47,256 bases of DNA from Candidatus Woesearchaeota archaeon (GCA_018657475.1 JABHXC010000021.1:1-47256); one strand, 5' to 3'; counted from the stretch's first letter, positions 3,486-42,188 are shown. Translations and numbers: made by a program. The notes: generated from the sequence alone by a model not told the origin.

Positions 3486-4256
3486 TTATTTCTTCTTTCC
3501 CATTCCTTCGAACGCTTTCAAAATTTCCAGTGGAACAGCAAAGATTACAGTATTACTTTGATCTGAAGACATATCATTGATGCTCTGTAACGTTCGTAGA
3601 TGTAACGCGCCTGGCGCTTTAGATAACATTGTAGCAGCTTTTGACATGTTAGCAGCAGCAGCAACTTCTCCTTGTGCTTTGATAATCACTGCACGTTTCT
3701 CTCTTTCAGATTCAGCTTCTTTGGCCATAGTTCTTTTCATGTTTTCTGGAAGTTCAACATGTTTAAGATCAACTGAATCTACCTTAATCCCCCAAGGATC
3801 TGTAGCTTTATCAACAAGTTGCTGAATTCTTTTTGAAATGTCATCTCGGTTTGCTAATAATTCATCTAATGTAGCTTCCCCTACAACATCCCTCATTGTA
3901 GTTTGGGATAATTGCGAAGTTGCATAAAAATAATTTTCAACACTCAATATTGCTTTTGATGCCTCTGAAACTTTGAAGTATAATACTGCATTAACTCTAA
4001 CAGAAACATTATCTTTTGTAATACAATCCTGATCAGGAACATCTACTGCTTTAACTCTTAAATCGACTTTTTGCCATGATTGAATAACCGGAATAACAAT
4101 ACGTAAACCTGGTTTCATTACCCCAGAAAACTTACCTAATGTGAATTTAACTCCACGTTCATACTCTTTTACTACTCTTAATCCAGAGAGTACAACAATA
4201 ATTAAAAGAACAACAACTGTTGGAATTGCTATAATCGCCATATGTAAACCACCCAC
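3486..4256 (-). CDS. SPFH/band-7 (stomatin/prohibitin-like) membrane protein
   Basis: N-terminal TM segment followed by a band-7 core (VKEYERGVKFTLGKF...GLRIVIPVIQSW...VDVPDQDCITKDNVSVRVNAVLYFKV...TTMRDVVGE). Confidence 0.85.
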   Translation of the reverse strand: MGGLHMAIIAIPTVVVLLIIVVLSGLRVVKEYERGVKFTLGKFSGVMKPGLRIVIPVIQSWQKVDLRVKAVDVPDQDCITKDNVSVRVNAVLYFKVSEASKAILSVENYFYATSQLSQTTMRDVVGEATLDELLANRDDISKRIQQLVDKATDPWGIKVDSVDLKHVELPENMKRTMAKEAESEREKRAVIIKAQGEVAAAANMSKAATMLSKAPGALHLRTLQSINDMSSDQSNTVIFAVPLEILKAFEGMGKKK

Positions 4257-4299
4257 TGGACAAGTACACGTAGACTATTTAAATGTTGTTTTTTCTAAA

Positions 4300-5028
4300 A
4301 TGCTTATGATCCAACAATCATTTATTTTTCTTGAAAAAGTGGGTAGAAAGAAAGAACAGAAAATCTTTCAACAAGCAAAGAATTGGCAACAATTCCTAAA
4401 TAAAGACAAAATAAAAGGAATAGCTACAAAGAAAAAGTTCCAGTATGACCGTCAAATCCAAGAAGCTCAAAAATCTTTAAAAGAAGAAAAACCAGAATAT
4501 TTTGTTAATCGACTTCCTAAGAAAGAAATGTGGCGTCTTTACAATTACTTTAAAGAAGATTGTTGCTTTCTTGACATTGAGGTTGACAGTAAAGGACAAA
4601 TCATCATAGTGGGTATTTCTAATGATTATTCCACAAAGACTTTTGTTGCAGGAATAAATCTAGATAAAAACTCTATTCAAAAAGAACTTCAAAAATACAA
4701 AATCATTATTACTTTTAATGGTGGTGCTTTTGACTTACCTAAATTAAGAAAACAGTTACAACTCCGGTTAACGCAACCACATATTGACTTAAAACCATTA
4801 TGTGTTAATTTAGGACTAAAAGGCGGATTAAAAGAAATAGAACGAATTCTTCAACTAAAAAGGCCACAGAATCTTCAAGGAAGCCCTGTTAGTTTATGGA
4901 AAGCATTTCACGCTTCTGGGGATAAAGAATATTTAGATTTATTAATTCAGTATAACAATGAGGATTGTGAAAACTTAAGAGCTATCATAAACAAAGTTTA
5001 TGGTGAGTTAAGCAAATTTTACCAATAG
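4300..5028 (+). CDS. RNase H-fold (YprB-like/DEDD-type) predicted exonuclease
   Basis: Track ORF 4141..5028 overlaps the stomatin gene, so the start was trimmed to the ATG at 4300. Acidic motifs FLDIEVD, ITFNGGAFDLP and YNNEDCENL are spaced as in RNase_H_2/PolB-exo-like domains. Confidence 0.5.
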   Translation: MLMIQQSFIFLEKVGRKKEQKIFQQAKNWQQFLNKDKIKGIATKKKFQYDRQIQEAQKSLKEEKPEYFVNRLPKKEMWRLYNYFKEDCCFLDIEVDSKGQIIIVGISNDYSTKTFVAGINLDKNSIQKELQKYKIIITFNGGAFDLPKLRKQLQLRLTQPHIDLKPLCVNLGLKGGLKEIERILQLKRPQNLQGSPVSLWKAFHASGDKEYLDLLIQYNNEDCENLRAIINKVYGELSKFYQ

Positions 5029-5157
5029 TTAATTTTTATTTTATTAACATATAAATAAACTCTTAATCAGTAATTATATCAGAATTTTCCTATTACTTCA
5101 ACAATCTACTTTTAAAGAAGCAGAAAGTATTTATTGAATTGCAACTCTAAAGCAAAT

Positions 5158-5673
5158 ATGGGGTTTAATTTTAATTTTAGAGATATTAGTAGTCATAAAG
5201 ATCTACAAATGTTAGTAGATTTTTTAATAAAGCAAGATCTTGGTTATCCACAATATGAAAGTTGGGTGCAACGAACAGAACATGAACTTGACACCGGATA
5301 TAAAAATGCCATCTTAGCGTTTAGTGATGGTCATTTAGTGGGTGATTTAATTTATCAACCACACAAAGAGTTACCAAATATAGGTGAAATAAAAAATCTA
5401 AGAATTCATCCTGGAGTTAGACGACGATACTTTGCTCAATTCATGCTACGACAAGTAGAAATAGAACAAGCAAATAGATTTTCTACACTTCTCGTTGATG
5501 TTCGATCTAATCAATCTGATGTTATCACTGCTTTTAGAGTAGCTGGCTACACAGAAGTCTTAAGAACACCATTGTATGACCCAAATATTGAAGATGTTGT
5601 TATGACAAAGTGTTTTGATAAAACTACTGAAATGGGCATTTTACACAAAACTAGGAGACTAATCTTAGGCTAA
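5158..5673 (+). CDS. GNAT-family N-acetyltransferase
   Basis: The track ORF starts at a TTG at 5134; the first ATG is at 5158. GNAT motif-A-like segment IKNLRIHPGVRRRYFAQFMLRQVE, with size and layout typical of the family. Confidence 0.55.
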   Translation: MGFNFNFRDISSHKDLQMLVDFLIKQDLGYPQYESWVQRTEHELDTGYKNAILAFSDGHLVGDLIYQPHKELPNIGEIKNLRIHPGVRRRYFAQFMLRQVEIEQANRFSTLLVDVRSNQSDVITAFRVAGYTEVLRTPLYDPNIEDVVMTKCFDKTTEMGILHKTRRLILG

Positions 5674-5720
5674 CTTTGTAGGCAATAACTATTTAAACTC
5701 CCTCCTCCAACCTTTACCCT

Positions 5721-6839
5721 ATGGCAACGGTAACTCCTTGGGAAGTAAAGGGTAATATTGATTATGATAAATTAATCAAAAATTGTGGTTTAAAACCGCT
5801 AAAAAATCTTCCAGAAATATTTCAAAAGCAAGTATTGTTTAGAAGAGAAATTATTTTTGCTCATCGTGACTTTAAAAGGATAGTCGATGCTGTTGAGAAT
5901 AATGACTCTTTTGTAATGATGACTGGATTAATGCCTTCTGGCAAGTTTCATTTTGGCCATAAAATGGTTGCTGACCAAATAATCTTCTACCAAAATTTAG
6001 GTGCTAAAGTATATCTTACTGTTGCTGATATTGAAGCTTATAACTCAAGAACTACTGATATGGAGTTGTTAAGAAAAACAGCGATAGAAGAATATCTTAC
6101 AAATTATGTCGCTTTAGGGTTAGATCTTGATAAGTGCGATTTTTATTTTCAATCTAAAAGATCTAATGATGGGAAAAAATCTAATGCTTATTATAGCTTA
6201 GCTTCAATGCTAGCAAGACACGCAACATTTAATGAGTTTAAAGCAATTTATGGTACTGTTTCTCCTGGAAAACTATCTGCTTCTTTACTTCAAGCAGCAG
6301 ACATGTTACATCCTCAACTACCTGAATTTTCTGAGAAACCTTTACCTGTTGTAATTCCTGTTGGTGCAGATCAAGATCCTCACTTAAGAATCGCTAGAGA
6401 TGTTGCTAAGAGAATAAAGCTTCATAAATTCATTCCGTTAAGTTCAACAAACCATAAGTTCATGCCAGGATTAAAAGGTGGAAAAATGTCTTCTTCAGAT
6501 GAAACATCGTACATTGCGCTAAGTGATTCTCCAGAAGCAGCAGCAAAGAAAATTAAGAAGTATGCTTTTTCTGGTGGTCAAGCCACTTTAGAAGAACATC
6601 GTAAGAAAGGCGGAAATCCTGATGTTGACGTTTCTTATCAAATGCTATTTTATGGTTTGGAAGAAGATGATAAGAAACTTAAAGAAATTTATGCCAATTA
6701 CAAGTCTGGAAAATTACTTTCTGGAGAATTAAAAAATATTGTTATTGAAAAACTAACTACTTTTTTAACAGAACATCATAAAAAACGAAAAGCTGCAGAA
6801 AAAGTGGTCAAGAAGTATATTCTTGAACACAATCTTTAA
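5721..6839 (+). CDS. trpS: tryptophanyl-tRNA synthetase, archaeal/eukaryal type
   Basis: N-terminus VTPWEVKGNIDYDKLI, HIGH-type motif GKFHFGH, KMSKS-type motif GGKMSSSD; length 372 aa. Confidence 0.9.
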   Translation: MATVTPWEVKGNIDYDKLIKNCGLKPLKNLPEIFQKQVLFRREIIFAHRDFKRIVDAVENNDSFVMMTGLMPSGKFHFGHKMVADQIIFYQNLGAKVYLTVADIEAYNSRTTDMELLRKTAIEEYLTNYVALGLDLDKCDFYFQSKRSNDGKKSNAYYSLASMLARHATFNEFKAIYGTVSPGKLSASLLQAADMLHPQLPEFSEKPLPVVIPVGADQDPHLRIARDVAKRIKLHKFIPLSSTNHKFMPGLKGGKMSSSDETSYIALSDSPEAAAKKIKKYAFSGGQATLEEHRKKGGNPDVDVSYQMLFYGLEEDDKKLKEIYANYKSGKLLSGELKNIVIEKLTTFLTEHHKKRKAAEKVVKKYILEHNL

Positions 6840-6880
6840 ATACGTAAAATTATTCTTTAAAGTAAAAGAGGTTGATAACT

Positions 6881-7078
6881 ATGGCAAAAAAGAAACCAAG
6901 AAAGTTTCATTATGCACCATTAAAAAGCAGTTTTATGCTAATTGCTATTTTAGGTTTTCTTATTTCAGCTTATTATTTGTTCCCATTAAGTTTTAATTTT
7001 GGTATTGCCGCAATGATAATTTTTGCTGCAATGTTTGTTGCTTCGTTAGTTAGTATGACAAAAGCACCGGTGATGTAA
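6881..7078 (+). CDS. small two-TM membrane protein
   Basis: ATG at 6881 is preceded by AGAGGT. Basic N-terminus followed by two hydrophobic helices. The next gene starts 2 nt after its stop. Confidence 0.5.
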   Translation: MAKKKPRKFHYAPLKSSFMLIAILGFLISAYYLFPLSFNFGIAAMIIFAAMFVASLVSMTKAPVM

Positions 7079-36774: not shown

Positions 36775-37050
36775 ATGTATCTGCTAAAAACAACTAGAGA
36801 TTTCAGAAAACAGTTTAAGAAACTCCCAAAAGAGATTCAAAGAAGGTTTAATCAGCAATTTAGAATATTAAAAGATGATCCTTTTCATTATGGGAGACCA
36901 TTAGGAAACAAAAAGTTCAGAGAACTCAAAAACGAGGGATTTAGGGTATATTTTGTAATTTACAAAGAACAAATTGTAGTGTTACTAATAGGGGTCTCAA
37001 ATAAAAAGACTCAACAAAATGTAATTGATTATGTTAAGAGGTTCATATAA
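36775..37050 (+). CDS. RelE/ParE-family type II toxin
   Basis: 91 aa. MYLLKTTRDFRKQFKKLPKEIQRRFNQQFRILKDDPF...FRELKNEGFRVYFVIYKEQIVVLLIGVSNKK fits the RelE/ParE layout. Confidence 0.7.
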   Translation: MYLLKTTRDFRKQFKKLPKEIQRRFNQQFRILKDDPFHYGRPLGNKKFRELKNEGFRVYFVIYKEQIVVLLIGVSNKKTQQNVIDYVKRFI

Positions 37051-37315: not shown

Positions 37316-37423
37316 AGCCCTTGGTGGGAATCGAACCCACGACCTGCTGCTGTCTGAAATCAGAGATTTCCGAACAAATCAAGATTTTACGAGGCAGCCA
37401 CTATACCGCTAAGCTACAAGGGC
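37316..37423 (-). tRNA. tRNA-Thr (CGT) with 36-nt intron at the canonical 37/38 position
   Basis: Hand-folded. Acceptor GCCCTTG/CAAGGGC with discriminator T, D arm GCTT-AGCGGTA-TAGT, anticodon stem GCTGC/GCAGC with loop CTCGTA[intron 37352-37387]A, variable loop AGGTC, T arm GTGGG-TTCGATT-CCCAC. Mature length 72 nt. Confidence 0.75.
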
Positions 37424-37451: not shown

Positions 37452-37622
37452 TTAAACTTTTTTTAGTTGTTCAAGTAATTCTTCTTTTGTAGAAAATTTC
37501 TTTTGACAAGAAAAACAAACGGAATATTTTTTTGAAGAACTAGCTTTTTTAACAATCGTCCCTTTAATCTTTCCTAAGAACGTTTCAGCTAACTGTGCTT
37601 TACATATCGAACATTTTGCCAT
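37452..37622 (-). CDS. small Zn-ribbon protein
   Basis: Not in the track; hand-translated as MAKCSICKAQLAETFLGKIKGTIVKKASSSKKYSVCFSCQKKFSTKEELLEQLKKV*. It has a CxxC...CxxC pattern. Confidence 0.5.
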   Translation of the reverse strand: MAKCSICKAQLAETFLGKIKGTIVKKASSSKKYSVCFSCQKKFSTKEELLEQLKKV

Positions 37623-37724: not shown

Positions 37725-38807
37725 ATGATTGATCTCTTATTAACGTATGATCGAACACGTCGTTTTTCTTACGGTGACGTTTATTTAAATGTGGCTAGAA
37801 ACCTTTTAAATGAAAATTTTAAAGTTACAGTGTTAGACATTGAAAATCTCATTGCAGATACAAAATCAGTTCCAGTTTCTGTTTATTTACAACAATACAC
37901 CGATCATTTTAAACCAAAAATAGTGGTGTCAGATCATGCAGGTTTGTATGAAACAATTAGTTCTGTTCAAAATTCTCCTATAATTCAAGATGAAATTGAA
38001 GATTTTTTTAGTACAGAATATCAAGGAAGGTTACAATGTAACTCCCCTCTTTCTTTTCCTGGTGCTTTGGAACTAAAAGTAGAATTCATACGCCGTATGC
38101 GTGATGAAAAACTTCCAATCCCTCAAACAATACTTCACGAAGATTTTGATGATTGGAATTATAACTCTCTTGCTAAAAAACTTGGTTCTCCTTTTGTTAT
38201 AAAAGAAACTGGCCAACATTATGGGAAAGGTGTACATTTAGTTAATGAAGAAAGTGCATTATTGCATAAAGATTCAGTAGTACTTGCTCAACGTCGTATA
38301 ACCTCTGTAACTGATTTTCCTTGTACATTACGTGTAATGACTTTTGGTTCAGAAATTATTGGTACATTTTTACTTTATAGCAACGATCATTTACTGTCAA
38401 ACGCAAAAGATCATACTGCAATGCTGTTAAACACTCCAATTAAAGTTAATGATTCTATTCCATCGAAATTTTTAGGTAAACTTTCCAATCTTGGATTAAA
38501 TTCCAATTTAGAATTAACTGATGAAATTCATGAACTTGCAACCACTATTGGTGGGCTTCATTCAAGAAGTTTCCTTCGTGGGATTGATATTAAGTTTAGT
38601 GAAGATGGACTTCCTTATGTTCTTGAAGCTCAAACCGGACCTGCTTCTTTACAGAAAGGAACTTATTGTTCAATTCAAGGAATAAAGAAAGGAAATGTTT
38701 CTCATAATTTTCAAACAGCTGTTAATTTTCTTACTCCAAGATTCTTAAATCTGTTAGGTAACCAAAACCAATATAAAGCTCAATCTGAGCAGTATAATCA
38801 TGCGTAA
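37725..38807 (+). CDS. ATP-grasp family ligase (RimK-like)
   Basis: ATP-grasp blocks: SPFVIKETGQHYGKGVHLVNEE, VLAQRRI, LRVMTFGSEIIGTF, FLRGIDIKFSEDGLPYVLEAQTGPA. TATA-like TTTTATAAAC lies about 35 nt upstream. Confidence 0.7.
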   Translation: MIDLLLTYDRTRRFSYGDVYLNVARNLLNENFKVTVLDIENLIADTKSVPVSVYLQQYTDHFKPKIVVSDHAGLYETISSVQNSPIIQDEIEDFFSTEYQGRLQCNSPLSFPGALELKVEFIRRMRDEKLPIPQTILHEDFDDWNYNSLAKKLGSPFVIKETGQHYGKGVHLVNEESALLHKDSVVLAQRRITSVTDFPCTLRVMTFGSEIIGTFLLYSNDHLLSNAKDHTAMLLNTPIKVNDSIPSKFLGKLSNLGLNSNLELTDEIHELATTIGGLHSRSFLRGIDIKFSEDGLPYVLEAQTGPASLQKGTYCSIQGIKKGNVSHNFQTAVNFLTPRFLNLLGNQNQYKAQSEQYNHA

Positions 38808-38871
38808 AAGAATTGCTATAATAGACAAAGAGAAATGCCATCCTGCTTTTTTGAAAAACCAGATTTCTTAA
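38800..38871 (+). pseudogene. relic of an ABCE1 5' end (first ~16 codons) followed by unrelated sequence and a stop
   Basis: MRKRIAIIDKEKCHPAFLKNQIS*. Residues 2-15 match residues 3-16 of the intact ABCE1 (RKRIAVIDKNKCRP) at 11/14 aa and 27/42 nt. The ATG overlaps the ATP-grasp stop (cATGcgTAA). Confidence 0.6.
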
Positions 38872-40427
38872 TAATTGTTCATTTAACTTTTCCTAAAAAC
38901 GTCTTAGCTAAGAAACTATTTATTTTTAAAAAATGATGGTTTAAGATAATGTAACACTCACTGCCAGGGTTAACATTTAAATAATGATGCCCTTTCCAGT
39001 AGAGATGGATATTTCTCATTTAACATTTCTCGTACTGGGTGAAGAAAAATGTTAAACTACGAAAATGATCCATTATTACTTGAGAACCAAACTGCTAATT
39101 TTTTAATTTCAAAAAAGAAAGACGATCTTTTATTTCTTGACAAAAATAAGGGGATCCTTAATATCTTTTCAGCATTTGTTAAAATGAATGACTTTGTAAA
39201 GAAAGATAAGATTGTTCAGCCTTTACAAACTACTTTATACGCTAAGATAAGTAAAGATCTGGCCGATGAATTAAATAAGAGATGTAATTCTACAAAACAA
39301 GTAAGGGGCTTGATCAGTAATTATACTAAAAAAAGAACAAATTGCAATGTTGACAAATGGTTTAAGCTTAAAGTTTTCCCTTTAATTTTCTTAAGGATTA
39401 TCAGTAAAGATGTAAATGAATTATCTCGTTGGGTTTTAGAGATAGATTACTTAACTGATTATCTTAACAAGTCCAGATTTTATGTTCCAAAGAAAATTGA
39501 TGATTTATTAGATAATAAACTTATTTACTTTGTTGGTTGCTCTGTAGGGGATGGACATATTGATAAAGCAGGAAAAAGATGGATATTGGTGGATGGTAGT
39601 TCAGATAACAGAAGATTAGAGCAATCTCGTGACTTTATCTATAATCTTGCATCTCTGCTTAAGAATTACATAAAGACTTACACTATATCTGAACATAAGA
39701 CAAAGTATGTTCTAAATGTAAACAACAAGTCGCTTTGTCGTTTCTTAAATTTTTTCTTTAGTTTACCTTATGGTGCAAAGAAAAATGTGACACTAAAAGT
39801 TCCATTAATATTAAGTTACTCTAGAAACAATTTAGAAAAGTACTTCTGGAGGGGAATGTTCGATACTGATGGGAGTGCAGTGCAAAATCATAGTGTTGAT
39901 CTTTGTTCTTCTGATAAAAATATTCTTAAGGAATGCACAGATTTTTTAAAAAAACTATCAATCAATCCAAAGGTTTCAATGATTGGAGTTAGAGTTAATA
40001 ATTCTGATCTTAAAACTTTTTCTCATGTCGGTTTTGCTCATCCAAGAAAACAAATCGAATTTTTATCTTCTTTAAAGCAAGGTCCAAAATTTAAAGTTTC
40101 CAGAATAATCCCAGGAATGGAAAAGAAAATTTCTTCTGATTTATATAAAATCCATAAAATTTTAAGAGTTGATAATTCAAACAATAGAATTAGAATAAAC
40201 GCTACAGAAATAAGGAGAAGCAACCTTACTTTTGATGATGTCAAAGAGATTATTAAGAACAATTTTGGATACGAATTTAAAATAACTTCAAAGAATCTTC
40301 ATTACTTTAAATCAAAAAAAGTTGCATCTTTTCTGAGGAGTAGGTTTATATACGAACCCGCATGGAAAGCCATTGAGGAAGAGGAAGAAGATCAACTTTT
40401 AATAAGTTGGAATGATGTGTGGAGAAA
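38847..40427 (+). mobile_element. homing-endonuclease cassette inserted at the ABCE1 5' end (approximate bounds)
   Basis: Bounded on the left by the end of homology of the ABCE1 relic (about 38846) and on the right by the ATG of the intact ABCE1 (40428). Contains the LAGLIDADG ORF and the Zn-ribbon relic. Confidence 0.5.
38870..38911 (-). pseudogene. 42-nt degenerate copy of the middle of the Zn-ribbon gene at 37452..37622
   Basis: 33/42 nt are identical to 37551-37592. The relic translates to LAKTFLGKVK*TII, versus LAETFLGKIKGTIV in the intact gene. Confidence 0.5.
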
Positions 40428-40434
40428 ATGTTAA
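39049..40434 (+). CDS. LAGLIDADG homing endonuclease (double-motif, free-standing) with N-terminal extension
   Basis: Canonical motifs LIYFVGCSVGDGHI and KYFWRGMFDTDGSA about 100 aa apart. Supporting blocks SLCRFLNFF, KVPLIL, NILKECTDFLKKLSI, FSHVGFAHPRKQ. The last codons (TGG AGA AAA TGT TAA) overlap the ABCE1 ATG. Confidence 0.8.
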   Translation: MLNYENDPLLLENQTANFLISKKKDDLLFLDKNKGILNIFSAFVKMNDFVKKDKIVQPLQTTLYAKISKDLADELNKRCNSTKQVRGLISNYTKKRTNCNVDKWFKLKVFPLIFLRIISKDVNELSRWVLEIDYLTDYLNKSRFYVPKKIDDLLDNKLIYFVGCSVGDGHIDKAGKRWILVDGSSDNRRLEQSRDFIYNLASLLKNYIKTYTISEHKTKYVLNVNNKSLCRFLNFFFSLPYGAKKNVTLKVPLILSYSRNNLEKYFWRGMFDTDGSAVQNHSVDLCSSDKNILKECTDFLKKLSINPKVSMIGVRVNNSDLKTFSHVGFAHPRKQIEFLSSLKQGPKFKVSRIIPGMEKKISSDLYKIHKILRVDNSNNRIRINATEIRRSNLTFDDVKEIIKNNFGYEFKITSKNLHYFKSKKVASFLRSRFIYEPAWKAIEEEEEDQLLISWNDVWRKC

Positions 40435-42188
40435 GGAAAAGAATAGCGGTTATTGATAAGAACAAATGCAGACCAGATGCTTGCGGAAATTATTTATGCG
40501 CAAAATTATGTCCAGTGAACCGCACTGGAACAGAGTGTATAACTCCTGGTAGTGATAATACTGCACGTATAGATGAAATCTTGTGTACTGGTTGCACGGT
40601 GTGTATTGGGCGTTGTCCATTTAATGCTATAACTATAATCAACCTTCCATCACATTTAAACAAATCTCCAGTTCATAGGTATGGTGCTAATAGTTTTGAG
40701 TTATACAGCTTACCAACACCAATTTTTGGGCAAGTAACAGGTATTTTGGGAAAGAACGGTATAGGAAAGTCTACTGCGTTAAAAGTAATGGCTAACATAT
40801 TGAAACCTAATTTAGGTAATTGGCAAGACCCTCCAACGTTTAAAGAAGTAATTAACTATTTCAAAGGTTCAGAAACACAAAAATTTCTAGAACAATTACA
40901 AAAGAACGAAATTAATTTATCATACAAACCGCAACAAGTTGATTTGATCCCTAAACAGTTTTCAGGTACGGTAAGGGAACTGTTACAAAAAGTTGACCAA
41001 ACTGGAAAGATCGAAGAACTTGCAGAAACATTGCAGCTAACTGCAATTTTGGATAATGATATTACAAAAATTTCTGGCGGAGAGTTACAAAGAACCGCTA
41101 TAGCAGCAACTGTAGCAAAAAAAGCAAATTTATTTTTAATTGATGAACCAACATCTTACTTAGATATTAAACAAAGAGTAAACATTTCTAAATTTTTAAG
41201 ATCATTAACTAACGAAAAAACAGCAACAATTGTTATTGAACATGATTTATTAATTTTAGATTACATGACTGATGCATTAAATATTATGTATGGTCAAGAT
41301 AATGTTTTTGGTGTTGTTTCAGGTATAAAATCAACAAGAGAAGGTATTAATTCTTTTTTAGAAGGTTTCCTACGTGAAGAAAATGTTAGGTTTAGAGTAA
41401 AACCGTTAAAATTTGAAAAATCACAAGAAACTAAAACAGGTAGGATTGAGCAATTAGTTGCTTGGAAAAATTTACAGAAACAACTTGGAAACTTTTCATT
41501 AAAAACAGAACAGGGAGTTTTGTATAAGAACGAAATTGTTGGAGTTCTGGGAGAAAACGGTATGGGGAAAACCTCTTTCATTAAACTTCTTGCAGGTATT
41601 GGTAAACCTGATAGTGGAGAATTAGACAGTGAAATTAAAGTTGCCTATAAACCACAATACTTGGATACAGAATCCGAAATGCTAGTAGCTGATTTTTTAC
41701 AAAAAGCAATTGAAGATTATTCACACCAGTTAATCAAGTGGTTAGATTTAGAAAAATTGTTTACTCAAAAGTTATGTGAGTTATCTGGAGGACAGTTACA
41801 ACGTGTTGCTGTTGCACATTGTCTGAGCCAAGATGCAGATTTATTTTTGTTAGATGAACCTTCTGCCTATTTAGATGTTGAACAAAGATTGTTAATTGCA
41901 AAAGTAATTAAGAATATGACTAATGAACGTGAAACCACTGTTTTAGTTGTAGATCACGATTTAATGTTTTTAGATTATTTAGCTGATCGGGTGATTGTTT
42001 TTTCTGGAGTCCCAGCGAAAGAAGGAATTTTACATGGTCCACTTCCTTTGAAAGAAGGTATGAACCAATTTTTACAACAATTAAATATTACTTTACGTAG
42101 AGACATAACTTCTTCTCGACCCAGGATAAATAAACCAGGTTCAGTAAAAGATAGAGAACAACAATCAAAGAATTCTTGGTATGGATAG
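40428..42188 (+). CDS. ABCE1: ABCE1 / RNase L inhibitor (ribosome recycling ATPase)
   Basis: N-terminal double 4Fe-4S region (CRPDACGNYLCAKLCP; CTGCTVCIGRCP). Two ABC domains with Walker A GKNGIGKST and GENGMGKTS and signatures SGGELQR and SGGQLQR. The track start at 40419 is a GTG; the ATG at 40428 is preferred. Confidence 0.92.
   Translation: MLRKRIAVIDKNKCRPDACGNYLCAKLCPVNRTGTECITPGSDNTARIDEILCTGCTVCIGRCPFNAITIINLPSHLNKSPVHRYGANSFELYSLPTPIFGQVTGILGKNGIGKSTALKVMANILKPNLGNWQDPPTFKEVINYFKGSETQKFLEQLQKNEINLSYKPQQVDLIPKQFSGTVRELLQKVDQTGKIEELAETLQLTAILDNDITKISGGELQRTAIAATVAKKANLFLIDEPTSYLDIKQRVNISKFLRSLTNEKTATIVIEHDLLILDYMTDALNIMYGQDNVFGVVSGIKSTREGINSFLEGFLREENVRFRVKPLKFEKSQETKTGRIEQLVAWKNLQKQLGNFSLKTEQGVLYKNEIVGVLGENGMGKTSFIKLLAGIGKPDSGELDSEIKVAYKPQYLDTESEMLVADFLQKAIEDYSHQLIKWLDLEKLFTQKLCELSGGQLQRVAVAHCLSQDADLFLLDEPSAYLDVEQRLLIAKVIKNMTNERETTVLVVDHDLMFLDYLADRVIVFSGVPAKEGILHGPLPLKEGMNQFLQQLNITLRRDITSSRPRINKPGSVKDREQQSKNSWYG

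Follow-up and report, generated by a model that had tools for sequence, protein, structure and literature searches.

In the 47,256-nt contig JABHXC010000021.1 of a Candidatus Woesearchaeota archaeon (GCA_018657475.1; the whole stretch is hereafter called the window), the gene for the essential ribosome-recycling factor ABCE1 starts at the end of a free-standing LAGLIDADG homing endonuclease gene, and a relic of another ABCE1 start lies upstream of that gene. The reading we favor, at a probability of roughly 0.8, is that of a mobile cassette that comprises its own archaeal promoter and leader, an I-DmoI-like LAGLIDADG gene, and approximately 58 or more replacement ABCE1 codons, and that has left the native ABCE1 5' end as the upstream relic. 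The core of the locus is arranged as follows, with positions counted from the first nucleotide of the window:

38760..38779, + strand: putative native ABCE1 promoter AACCAAAACCAATATAAAGC, within the 3' end of the ATP-grasp gene, assigned from the archaeal TATA consensus
38770-38777, + strand: TATA-like sequence AATATAAA, 22 nt before the relic ATG
38800..38847, + strand: relic of the native ABCE1 5' end, codons 1-16, with the frame open to a stop at 38871
38848..38959, + strand: spacer of 112 nt with no detectable homology
38960..38975, + strand: degenerate copy of the junction motif, ACTGCCAGGGTTAACA, left over from ABCE1 codons 54-58 (T-G-C-G of the Fe-S motif CTGCGICP)
38976..39048, + strand: cassette promoter and leader, with predicted promoter and ribosome-binding roles
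39049..40434, + strand: free-standing two-domain LAGLIDADG endonuclease gene, 461 aa
40428..42188, + strand: intact ABCE1, 586 aa, with Pfam Fer4_RLI and two ABC_tran domains
40428..40601, + strand: ABCE1 codons 1-58, the probable replacement 5' segment
40584..40619, + strand: variant second Fe-S motif of the intact ABCE1, CTGCTVCIGRCP, the predicted former target region

The relic forms the beginning of a 23-aa open reading frame (ORF) (MRKRIAIIDKEKCHPAFLKNQIS; 38800-38871, 24 codons including the stop), the ATG of which lies within the cATGcgTAA of the ATP-grasp stop region, as an earlier sequence-only reading of this DNA had described. The alignment given there is also reproduced on recounting: relic residues 2-15 and ABCE1 residues 3-16 are identical at 11 of 14 amino acids and 27 of 42 nt, and most of the differences are synonymous (7 of the 10 differing codons). 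The statement that homology ends just before the first Fe-S cysteine cluster needs correction, as the relic includes the first cysteine (C13-H-P) and ends after it. Within the window, the relic is the top non-self tblastn match of ABCE1 (E=0.01), and it matches Pfam Fer4_RLI (E=0.0027), a protein hidden Markov model (HMM) of the ABCE1 N-terminus (27.6 bits, E 1e-6), and a DNA HMM of the ABCE1 5' end (E=1e-7). The identical arrangement is present in L133, a second independent assembly of the window species, and thus is not an assembly artefact.

The window has a G+C content of 33%, and Woesearchaeota-like genome bins of DPANN archaea are its closest relatives. Two genes upstream of the relic serve to compare the locus with these relatives:

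37452..37622, - strand: small Zn-ribbon-like gene, 56 aa, the left-hand context marker of the ABCE1 locus
37725..38807, + strand: ATP-grasp (RimK-like) gene (Pfam RimK, E=9e-5), an optional ABCE1 neighbor

In most Woesearchaeota-like relatives the Zn-ribbon gene is found 5' of ABCE1 by tblastn, whether or not an endonuclease gene is present, and endonuclease-free relatives have the order minus-strand Zn-ribbon gene, sometimes an optional gene, ABCE1, and LGT. Alignment with relatives that bear or lack the insertion, which the earlier reading had proposed as a check, yields empty sites: six genes of the window are collinear in L144, the nearest relative (with an ABCE1 that is 75% identical), where the Zn-ribbon gene, the ATP-grasp gene and ABCE1 follow one another with no endonuclease gene; in L007, the ATP-grasp gene is likewise followed directly by ABCE1; and in L005, L010, L011, L016, and L022 the Zn-ribbon gene adjoins ABCE1. 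Given the order ATP-grasp then ABCE1 in L144 and L007, the relic stands exactly where the ABCE1 start belongs. It is identical to the L144 ABCE1 start at 39 of 48 nt, including all of the first 17, and to the intact ABCE1 start of its own genome at 32 of 48. Furthermore, a CCAAAAnTAATATAAA box is found at the same 22-nt spacing before ABCE1 in the endonuclease-free loci L001, L003, L005, L007-L010, and L144, and the window relic retains this native promoter box at the native spacing. The identification of the relic as a former ABCE1 start is therefore supported, and the insertion-free gene order agrees with it. The further suggestion that the old start was once coupled to the ATP-grasp gene is not required, as the start has a promoter of its own.

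Other loci have relics of this kind as well. When the 400-600 nt preceding each endonuclease gene were searched with profiles, ABCE1 5' fragments of 11-35 codons were identified in six distinct loci (the window included), given here with the matching part of ABCE1 and the DNA-HMM E-value:

L143: ABCE1 nt 3-84, E 4e-19
L141: ABCE1 nt 7-79, E 6e-14
L054: ABCE1 nt 5-94, E 6e-13
L138: ABCE1 nt 6-62, E 1e-9
window: ABCE1 nt 2-47, E 1e-7
L146: ABCE1 nt 6-54, E 1e-3

A weak candidate is present in L142. Because the relics differ in length and stop position, they do not encode a conserved peptide, and the segment at 38800-38871 thus does not behave as an independently selected small gene, a possibility that the earlier reading had named as fatal to its case.

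The divergence between relic and intact copy was determined for five loci by Nei-Gojobori counts of differences per synonymous site (pS) and per non-synonymous site (pN). Four of the five pairs have a pS of 0.93-1.15 and a pN of 0.18-0.21; the window pair has a pS of 0.93, a pN of 0.21, and a pN/pS of 0.23, with synonymous sites saturated. Over the same codons, 325 pairs of alleles from different genomes have a pS of 0.88 ± 0.2 and a pN of ~0.2. Relic and intact copy are thus as divergent as alleles of different species, from which we infer that the two are orthologs from separate lineages, kept under purifying selection as they diverged, and that the 5' segment now in use was imported from a foreign source; this speaks against duplication in situ, as it does against one ancient insertion that then decayed neutrally. 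The earlier proposal that the intact 5' end derives from a different allele is borne out by these values, and the locus has the two marks of gene-end replacement: a displaced end beside an endonuclease gene, and a diverged copy that completes ABCE1. Selection for synonymous divergence between relic and intact copy, by which recombinational loss of the cassette would be avoided, was considered and rejected, because random allele pairs give the same pS (0.88 ± 0.2). The fifth pair, L054, is an exception in that its intact copy is itself degenerate. The L054 intact ABCE1 has lost four of the eight Fe-S cysteines (MTRLAIVDNNKLKDMALKKHIQSLCP...; CIGCGICTKPALEAI; positions 5375-5560), which the relic at 3790-3876 still encodes; either the Fe-S domain is degenerating after invasion, or this is an unusual ABCE1.

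Profile and structure predictions identify the 461-aa ORF as a true LAGLIDADG enzyme with two motifs. Enzymes of this class make site-specific double-strand cuts in long targets (~20 bp), and for the window enzyme DNA cleavage is predicted, with codons ~50-80 of endonuclease-free ABCE1 as the putative substrate. The ORF matches Pfam LAGLIDADG_3 (E=2e-10) and contains both motifs:

39526-39558, + strand: motif YFVGCSVGDGH, with catalytic D168
39841-39876, + strand: motif YFWRGMFDTDGS, with catalytic D274

D168 and D274 are invariant in 33 homologs, and in a PDB profile search the profile of these homologs aligns to I-DmoI across both domains (residues 160-333), with matches to PI-PfuI and PI-SceI over similar or partial ranges. 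The AlphaFold model of the protein (pLDDT 92.7, pTM 0.87) has the pseudo-dimeric alpha-beta-beta-alpha-beta-beta-alpha core fold, and Foldseek matches it at a probability of 1.0 to I-DmoI, I-Tsp061I, PI-PfuI, the TliVMA intein endonuclease, I-SceI, and I-AniI, with WhiA structures among the lower-ranked fold matches. The canonical two-motif ORF recognized from the DNA alone thus has the expected fold in the structure prediction that had been called for. No Hint or intein splicing domain was detected in the ORF by Pfam, and the ORF is out of frame with ABCE1 and has its own start; as a separate ORF with a conserved TFB recognition element (BRE)/TATA box, a leader, and a Shine–Dalgarno (SD)-like site, and with no Hint domain or intron RNA family detected, it is free-standing. 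It is separated from the 23-aa ORF by 177 nt of non-coding DNA, and at its other end the TAA (40432-40434) overlaps the ABCE1 ATG (40428) in the sequence ATGTTAA, as previously noted.

Among 56 endonuclease homologs retrieved by protein search, ~23 are full-length at 47-56% identity. All 17 endonuclease loci examined abut the start of ABCE1, comprising 15 distinct full-length loci (including the window, L002, L053, L054, L134, L136, L138-L143, and L146, the endonuclease of which is 32% identical) and two truncated remnants, so that the association of a free-standing endonuclease with the ABCE1 5' end holds in every case. The genes upstream of these loci are unrelated (among them histone deacetylase, giant protein, radical-SAM, and toxin-antitoxin genes). 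In the remnants, L055 and L062, only the C-terminal 220 and 150 endonuclease codons are left at the same position, and the L055 deletion fuses the junction motif described below to endonuclease codon ~243. The gene is thus present or absent at one site among related genomes and also occurs there in degenerate form, as is characteristic of a mobile gene. The single invasion event envisaged from the window sequence gives way to a family of cassettes with recurrent relics.

In a neighbor-joining tree of ABCE1, endonuclease-linked alleles are scattered among endonuclease-free ones. Pairwise identity between endonucleases is 44-61% regardless of host distance, and endonuclease and ABCE1 identities are weakly correlated (Spearman 0.50). 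For example, L134 and L139 have ABCE1 proteins that are 88% identical and endonucleases that are 56% identical, for which fast evolution of the endonuclease is an alternative reading. Between the window and L133, 8 of 12 single-nucleotide polymorphisms (SNPs) are in the endonuclease gene (p=0.003), two in ABCE1, and none in the ATP-grasp gene, an excess that suggests relaxed or diversifying selection on the endonuclease. Scattered alleles, flat endonuclease identity, truncations, and the SNP excess together form the pattern to be expected if a selfish gene spreads into new hosts, degenerates, and eventually disappears. An empty site within the same species was not found, there being no ABCE1 of 75%-100% identity in the protein collection. 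The L134 and L139 endonuclease genes are 73-87% identical over the promoter and first ~150 nt and 52-60% identical over the core (3983-4160 vs. 4160-5200), and these genes may be mosaics formed by recombination between variants.

The point of insertion can be read from a block that precedes the endonuclease gene in 11 of the 12 full-length loci aligned: [TGT]ACTGGTTGTGG-AAAAATTTAAATA-(3-4 nt)-TGTCCTTTTT. The block begins with the cassette junction motif (ACTGGTTGTGGAAAAA), of which the window has the degenerate copy listed above; its central part is a good archaeal BRE/TATA box, and the leader downstream of it contains another conserved block and, in many cases, an SD-like site. In the window these elements are:

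38976-38983, + strand: TATA box TTTAAATA of the cassette promoter
38987-38997, + strand: conserved sequence ATGCCCTTTCC of the cassette leader
39019-39035, + strand: block CATTTAACATTTC of the cassette leader
39037-39044, + strand: SD-like GGGTGA of the cassette leader

A 24-mer search that allowed up to 5 substitutions across 1.16 Mb of collected loci found the block only at this position, bar one chance match, and a leader HMM built from the other loci only matches the window at 38966-39051 (E=3.6e-6). Translated, TGT ACT GGT TGT GG gives C-T-G-C-G, with which the second Fe-S motif of ABCE1 (CTGCGICPNRCP; CTGCGICP) begins. In L143, the relic frame reads ...CAKLCP and then, across the junction, CTGCGKNLNI; in L138, it reads ...ECGDF and then TGCGKI and a stop. 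When a motif HMM was run over 14 endonuclease-free ABCE1 genes, the best match was at codons 52-59 in 6 of the 12 alleles that gave a match; L144 has the exact TGTACTGGTTGTGGGA (E=0.003) and contains TGTACTGGTTGTGGGATTTGTCC within ABCE1 codons 40-90. Because the junction motif corresponds to ABCE1 codons 53-58, the ancestral insertion point is at or beyond codon 58, and not at codon ~16, where the window relic ends. The window relic would then have lost codons 17-52, or these would have decayed.

The spacer at 38848-38959 has no match with the ABCE1 DNA HMM, the cassette-leader HMM, or Rfam, and no non-coding RNA was found in it by Rfam. Its length of 112 nt compares with 111 nt expected for ABCE1 codons 17-53, and it may be fully decayed relic; a T6 run is found at the relic breakpoint (38845-38853). 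A nested older cassette, suggested by a 19-nt repeat (38874, 39011), was rejected, as the leader HMM gave no second match. In both cassette and ABCE1, TGTCCTTTT (C63-P-F in ABCE1) follows the ACTGG of ACTGGTTGTGG by 27 nt, and three alleles have weak collinear matches at nt 186 that are not significant (E 3-17). It is conceivable that the cassette promoter was carved from relic sequence, in which case the true junction may lie further downstream.

The intact window ABCE1 is 60-77% identical to the Woesearchaeota-like ABCE1 proteins examined. Its N-terminal 66 aa are, in relative terms, further diverged from endonuclease-free alleles than would be expected: identity over this part divided by identity over the rest of the protein is 0.97 in comparisons with endonuclease-free alleles, vs. 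1.12 between endonuclease-free alleles. The exact sequence CTGCGICP is present in 9 of 14 endonuclease-free alleles vs. 1 of 14 endonuclease-linked alleles (Fisher p=0.004, phylogeny ignored), and T54/G55 are changed in 5 of 10 endonuclease-linked alleles vs. none of 14 endonuclease-free ones (p=0.006, phylogeny ignored). The CTGCGICP region is presumably the former target, and the window allele, with CTGCTVCIGRCP, would now be immune; we propose this target region with moderate confidence.

In the mechanism that we propose, the endonuclease would cut an endonuclease-free ABCE1 within the conserved coding sequence CTGCGICPNRCPF or directly behind it, and repair from a cassette-bearing donor would copy the promoter, the endonuclease gene, and the donor 5' codons into the break. 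The promoter and 5' codons of the recipient would thereby be stranded upstream, where they are seen as the relic, to decay by deletion. ABCE1, with its full frame, would now start at the ATG that overlaps the endonuclease stop, on a transcript that runs through the endonuclease gene. Changes within the imported CTGCGICP region would probably guard the new allele from being cut again. In cassette loci, the stop codon of the endonuclease gene and the start codon of the intact ABCE1 overlap or adjoin (ATGTTAA, AAATGA, or TAAATG). The TATA box ~22 nt before the ATG in endonuclease-free ABCE1 genes suggests leaderless or near-leaderless mRNAs. Because the native promoter is stranded with the relic and the ABCE1 start overlaps the endonuclease stop, ABCE1 in cassette loci would have to be transcribed through the endonuclease gene. 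Translation of ABCE1 by coupling to the endonuclease is plausible and probable from this arrangement, and we have moderate confidence in the coupled expression of the two genes.

Several results weigh against this account or complicate it. Endonuclease-linked alleles are no more alike in codons 1-58 than expected (permutation, difference -0.009, p=0.70), which gives no sign of a shared tract imported by co-conversion, and a sharp right-hand boundary within ABCE1 was not found in the sliding-window comparison of L134 with L139, in which the endonuclease core is 52-60% identical and the flanks are 75-85% identical. The substitution excess at CTGCGICP is not the top region in a whole-protein scan, and L141, which is endonuclease-linked, retains the consensus CTGCGICP. 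In the window, the junction motif is degenerate (~9/16 positions) and relic codons 17-53 are undetectable. Host alleles vary synonymously at ACN-GGN-TGY-GGN, whereas the cassette motif is nearly fixed as ACTGGTTGTGG; it follows that the motif is not created anew whenever a cassette invades, but is passed on as part of the cassette or maintained by some function, which is harder to fit to homing in its simplest form. The family is, moreover, full-length and well conserved, which would fit a domesticated protein too. Such a protein, a WhiA-like or maturase-like regulator of ABCE1 that was inserted once in the distant past, descended vertically with many losses, and is now immobile, would account for full-length homologs of 44-61% identity that are always at the same position, for a nearly fixed DNA motif beside the endonuclease promoter (as a binding site), for WhiA among the lower-ranked fold matches, and for the weak correlation between endonuclease and ABCE1 identities. 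Nevertheless, we consider it unlikely: both catalytic aspartates are invariant in 33 sequences, the endonuclease is absent from the closest relatives and truncated in L055 and L062, its divergence is flat at ~50-60% whatever the host distance (as for L134 vs. L139), and the relics show little extra non-synonymous decay, so that they are young relative to the divergence of the alleles, contrary to a single ancient event.

The presence of two ABCE1 starts in direct orientation on either side of the endonuclease gene could also be explained by tandem duplication of the ABCE1 5' end in situ, with an unrelated endonuclease gene landing between the copies and no foreign import. This is very improbable, given that relic and intact copy differ at essentially all synonymous sites with a pN/pS of ~0.2, like alleles of different species, that the relic is closer to the allele of the nearest relative than to the copy in its own genome, and that the architecture recurs in six lineages with a common promoter and junction block. 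The comparative data refute a third reading, in which the 23-aa ORF is a chance similarity, or a small gene or leader peptide in its own right that has nothing to do with the endonuclease gene: at 16 codons the similarity is short, with modest E-values in single searches, but profile searches with protein and with DNA both find it significant, and it follows the native ABCE1 promoter at native spacing, has no Rfam match, and has counterparts elsewhere that vary in length and stop and share no conserved peptide. The best structural matches include the intein-associated TliVMA and PI-PfuI, as would suit a degenerate ABCE1 intein or intron devoid of splicing function; however, Pfam detects no Hint or splicing domain and Rfam no intron RNA family, the ORF is out of frame with ABCE1 and is equipped with a separate promoter, ribosome-binding site, start, and stop, and the downstream ABCE1 is complete, with nothing that needs splicing, all of which makes such an origin exceedingly improbable.

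Like I-DmoI, I-Tsp061I, and PI-PfuI, the window enzyme carries both LAGLIDADG motifs, with their conserved acidic residues, on a single chain, and its core fold matches theirs with a TM-score, normalized to target, of 0.6-0.7. Unlike these enzymes, which are located within rRNA introns or inteins, it is free-standing, with its own promoter, at the start of a protein gene, and it has ~150 extra N-terminal and ~120 extra C-terminal residues. In phage T4, the SegF/SegG and MobE endonuclease genes reportedly lie beside their target genes and spread by break repair with co-conversion of flanks ("intronless homing"), giving a patchy distribution; these are said to be GIY-YIG or HNH enzymes encoded between genes, with no duplicate gene end and no relic. 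The window cassette likewise has its endonuclease gene beside the presumed target and is patchily distributed, but it interrupts a coding region and supplies a new start. The endonuclease insertions of Allomyces macrogynus atp6 (ORF360) and the LAGLIDADG insertions of Ophiostoma rps3 are mitochondrial and reportedly replace 3' ends, usually as in-frame fusions. As in those cases, a terminal segment is substituted from a diverged allele and the displaced native end is a pseudogene fragment; the differences are that a 5' end is replaced, in an archaeal chromosome and in an essential translation factor, and that a start codon and promoter are needed, with expression of the essential gene downstream of the endonuclease gene. 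By analogy, the mitochondrial gene-end-replacing elements would be closest in lifestyle, and the cassette would also work like the free-standing phage endonucleases. We know of no archaeal free-standing LAGLIDADG element that targets a protein gene, and of no description from any organism of 5'-end replacement by an endonuclease cassette.

I-TevI is said to repress its own expression at an operator that resembles its homing site. Similarly, in the cassette the presumed target remnant ACTGGTTGTGG abuts the BRE/TATA box and is more conserved than host synonymous variation predicts; binding and repression are putative here, and the two cases differ in enzyme family and in the domain of life to which the host belongs. 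It is speculated, from this analogy, that the junction motif is an operator for the endonuclease. In a broader proposal, which we consider less likely than not, the cassette would have captured ABCE1 expression, leaving the gene reliant on the cassette promoter and coupling only; with ACTGGTTGTGG, the conserved remnant of a target half-site, as its operator, the endonuclease could repress itself and hence ABCE1; the host would be addicted by promoter capture; and related endonucleases may have played the same trick on a Hef-like helicase, AlaRS, and GlyRS. If true, promoter capture would leave the host little scope to silence the selfish gene or to delete it.

Distant homologs of the endonuclease (25-31% identity) adjoin other conserved genes. 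Homologs of 25-29% identity are tail-to-tail against the 3' ends of genes for glycyl-tRNA synthetase (GlyRS; L058-L060 and L063), alanyl-tRNA synthetase (AlaRS; L061), and ABCE1 (L066). L061 has another fragment of the AlaRS C-terminus, located ~700 nt past the endonuclease gene (E=2e-7, without correction for composition), as a possible displaced 3' end, and L063 has a weak GlyRS fragment that contains stop codons. In L056, a 31%-identical homolog (4001-5500) overlaps the start of a Hef-like helicase gene (5487-7076), and an upstream ORF (MPDKVLKTIKPRKYQQEIYENCS, followed by a stop; ~3660-3730) resembles the helicase N-terminus (tblastn E=0.04); L056 may have the same layout of relic, endonuclease gene, and intact gene at another gene. 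These hints, individually weak, suggest that gene-end replacement is a general habit of the endonuclease lineage.

The ABCE1 cassette would show how a homing endonuclease can colonize a protein gene with neither intron nor intein, at the price of carrying a spare gene start and promoter. In these DPANN archaea, with their reduced genomes, the supply of an essential ribosome-recycling factor would thereby hinge on transcription that passes through a selfish gene. The endonucleases, at 32-61% identity, form a natural series of enzymes predicted to recognize the coding sequence of one conserved Fe-S motif; the series would be useful for the study of specificity evolution and for meganuclease engineering, and it provides a directly testable target prediction.

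The ATP-grasp gene is optional among the relatives (window 37725-38807; L007 3728-4819; L144 3918-4973) and is 30-33% identical between genomes in which ABCE1 is 69-75% identical; the slot between the Zn-ribbon gene and ABCE1 is thus a variable region. Further upstream in the window, a tRNA gene (37316-37423, - strand) has an insertion of ~38 nt after the anticodon region, as in an archaeal-type intron; this intron-bearing tRNA scores 57 bits against Rfam RF00005 and was missed by ARAGORN. A 91-aa ORF that resembles a RelE/ParE-type toxin (MYLLKTTRDFRKQFKKLPKEIQRR...) is located shortly upstream of the locus (36775-37050, + strand).

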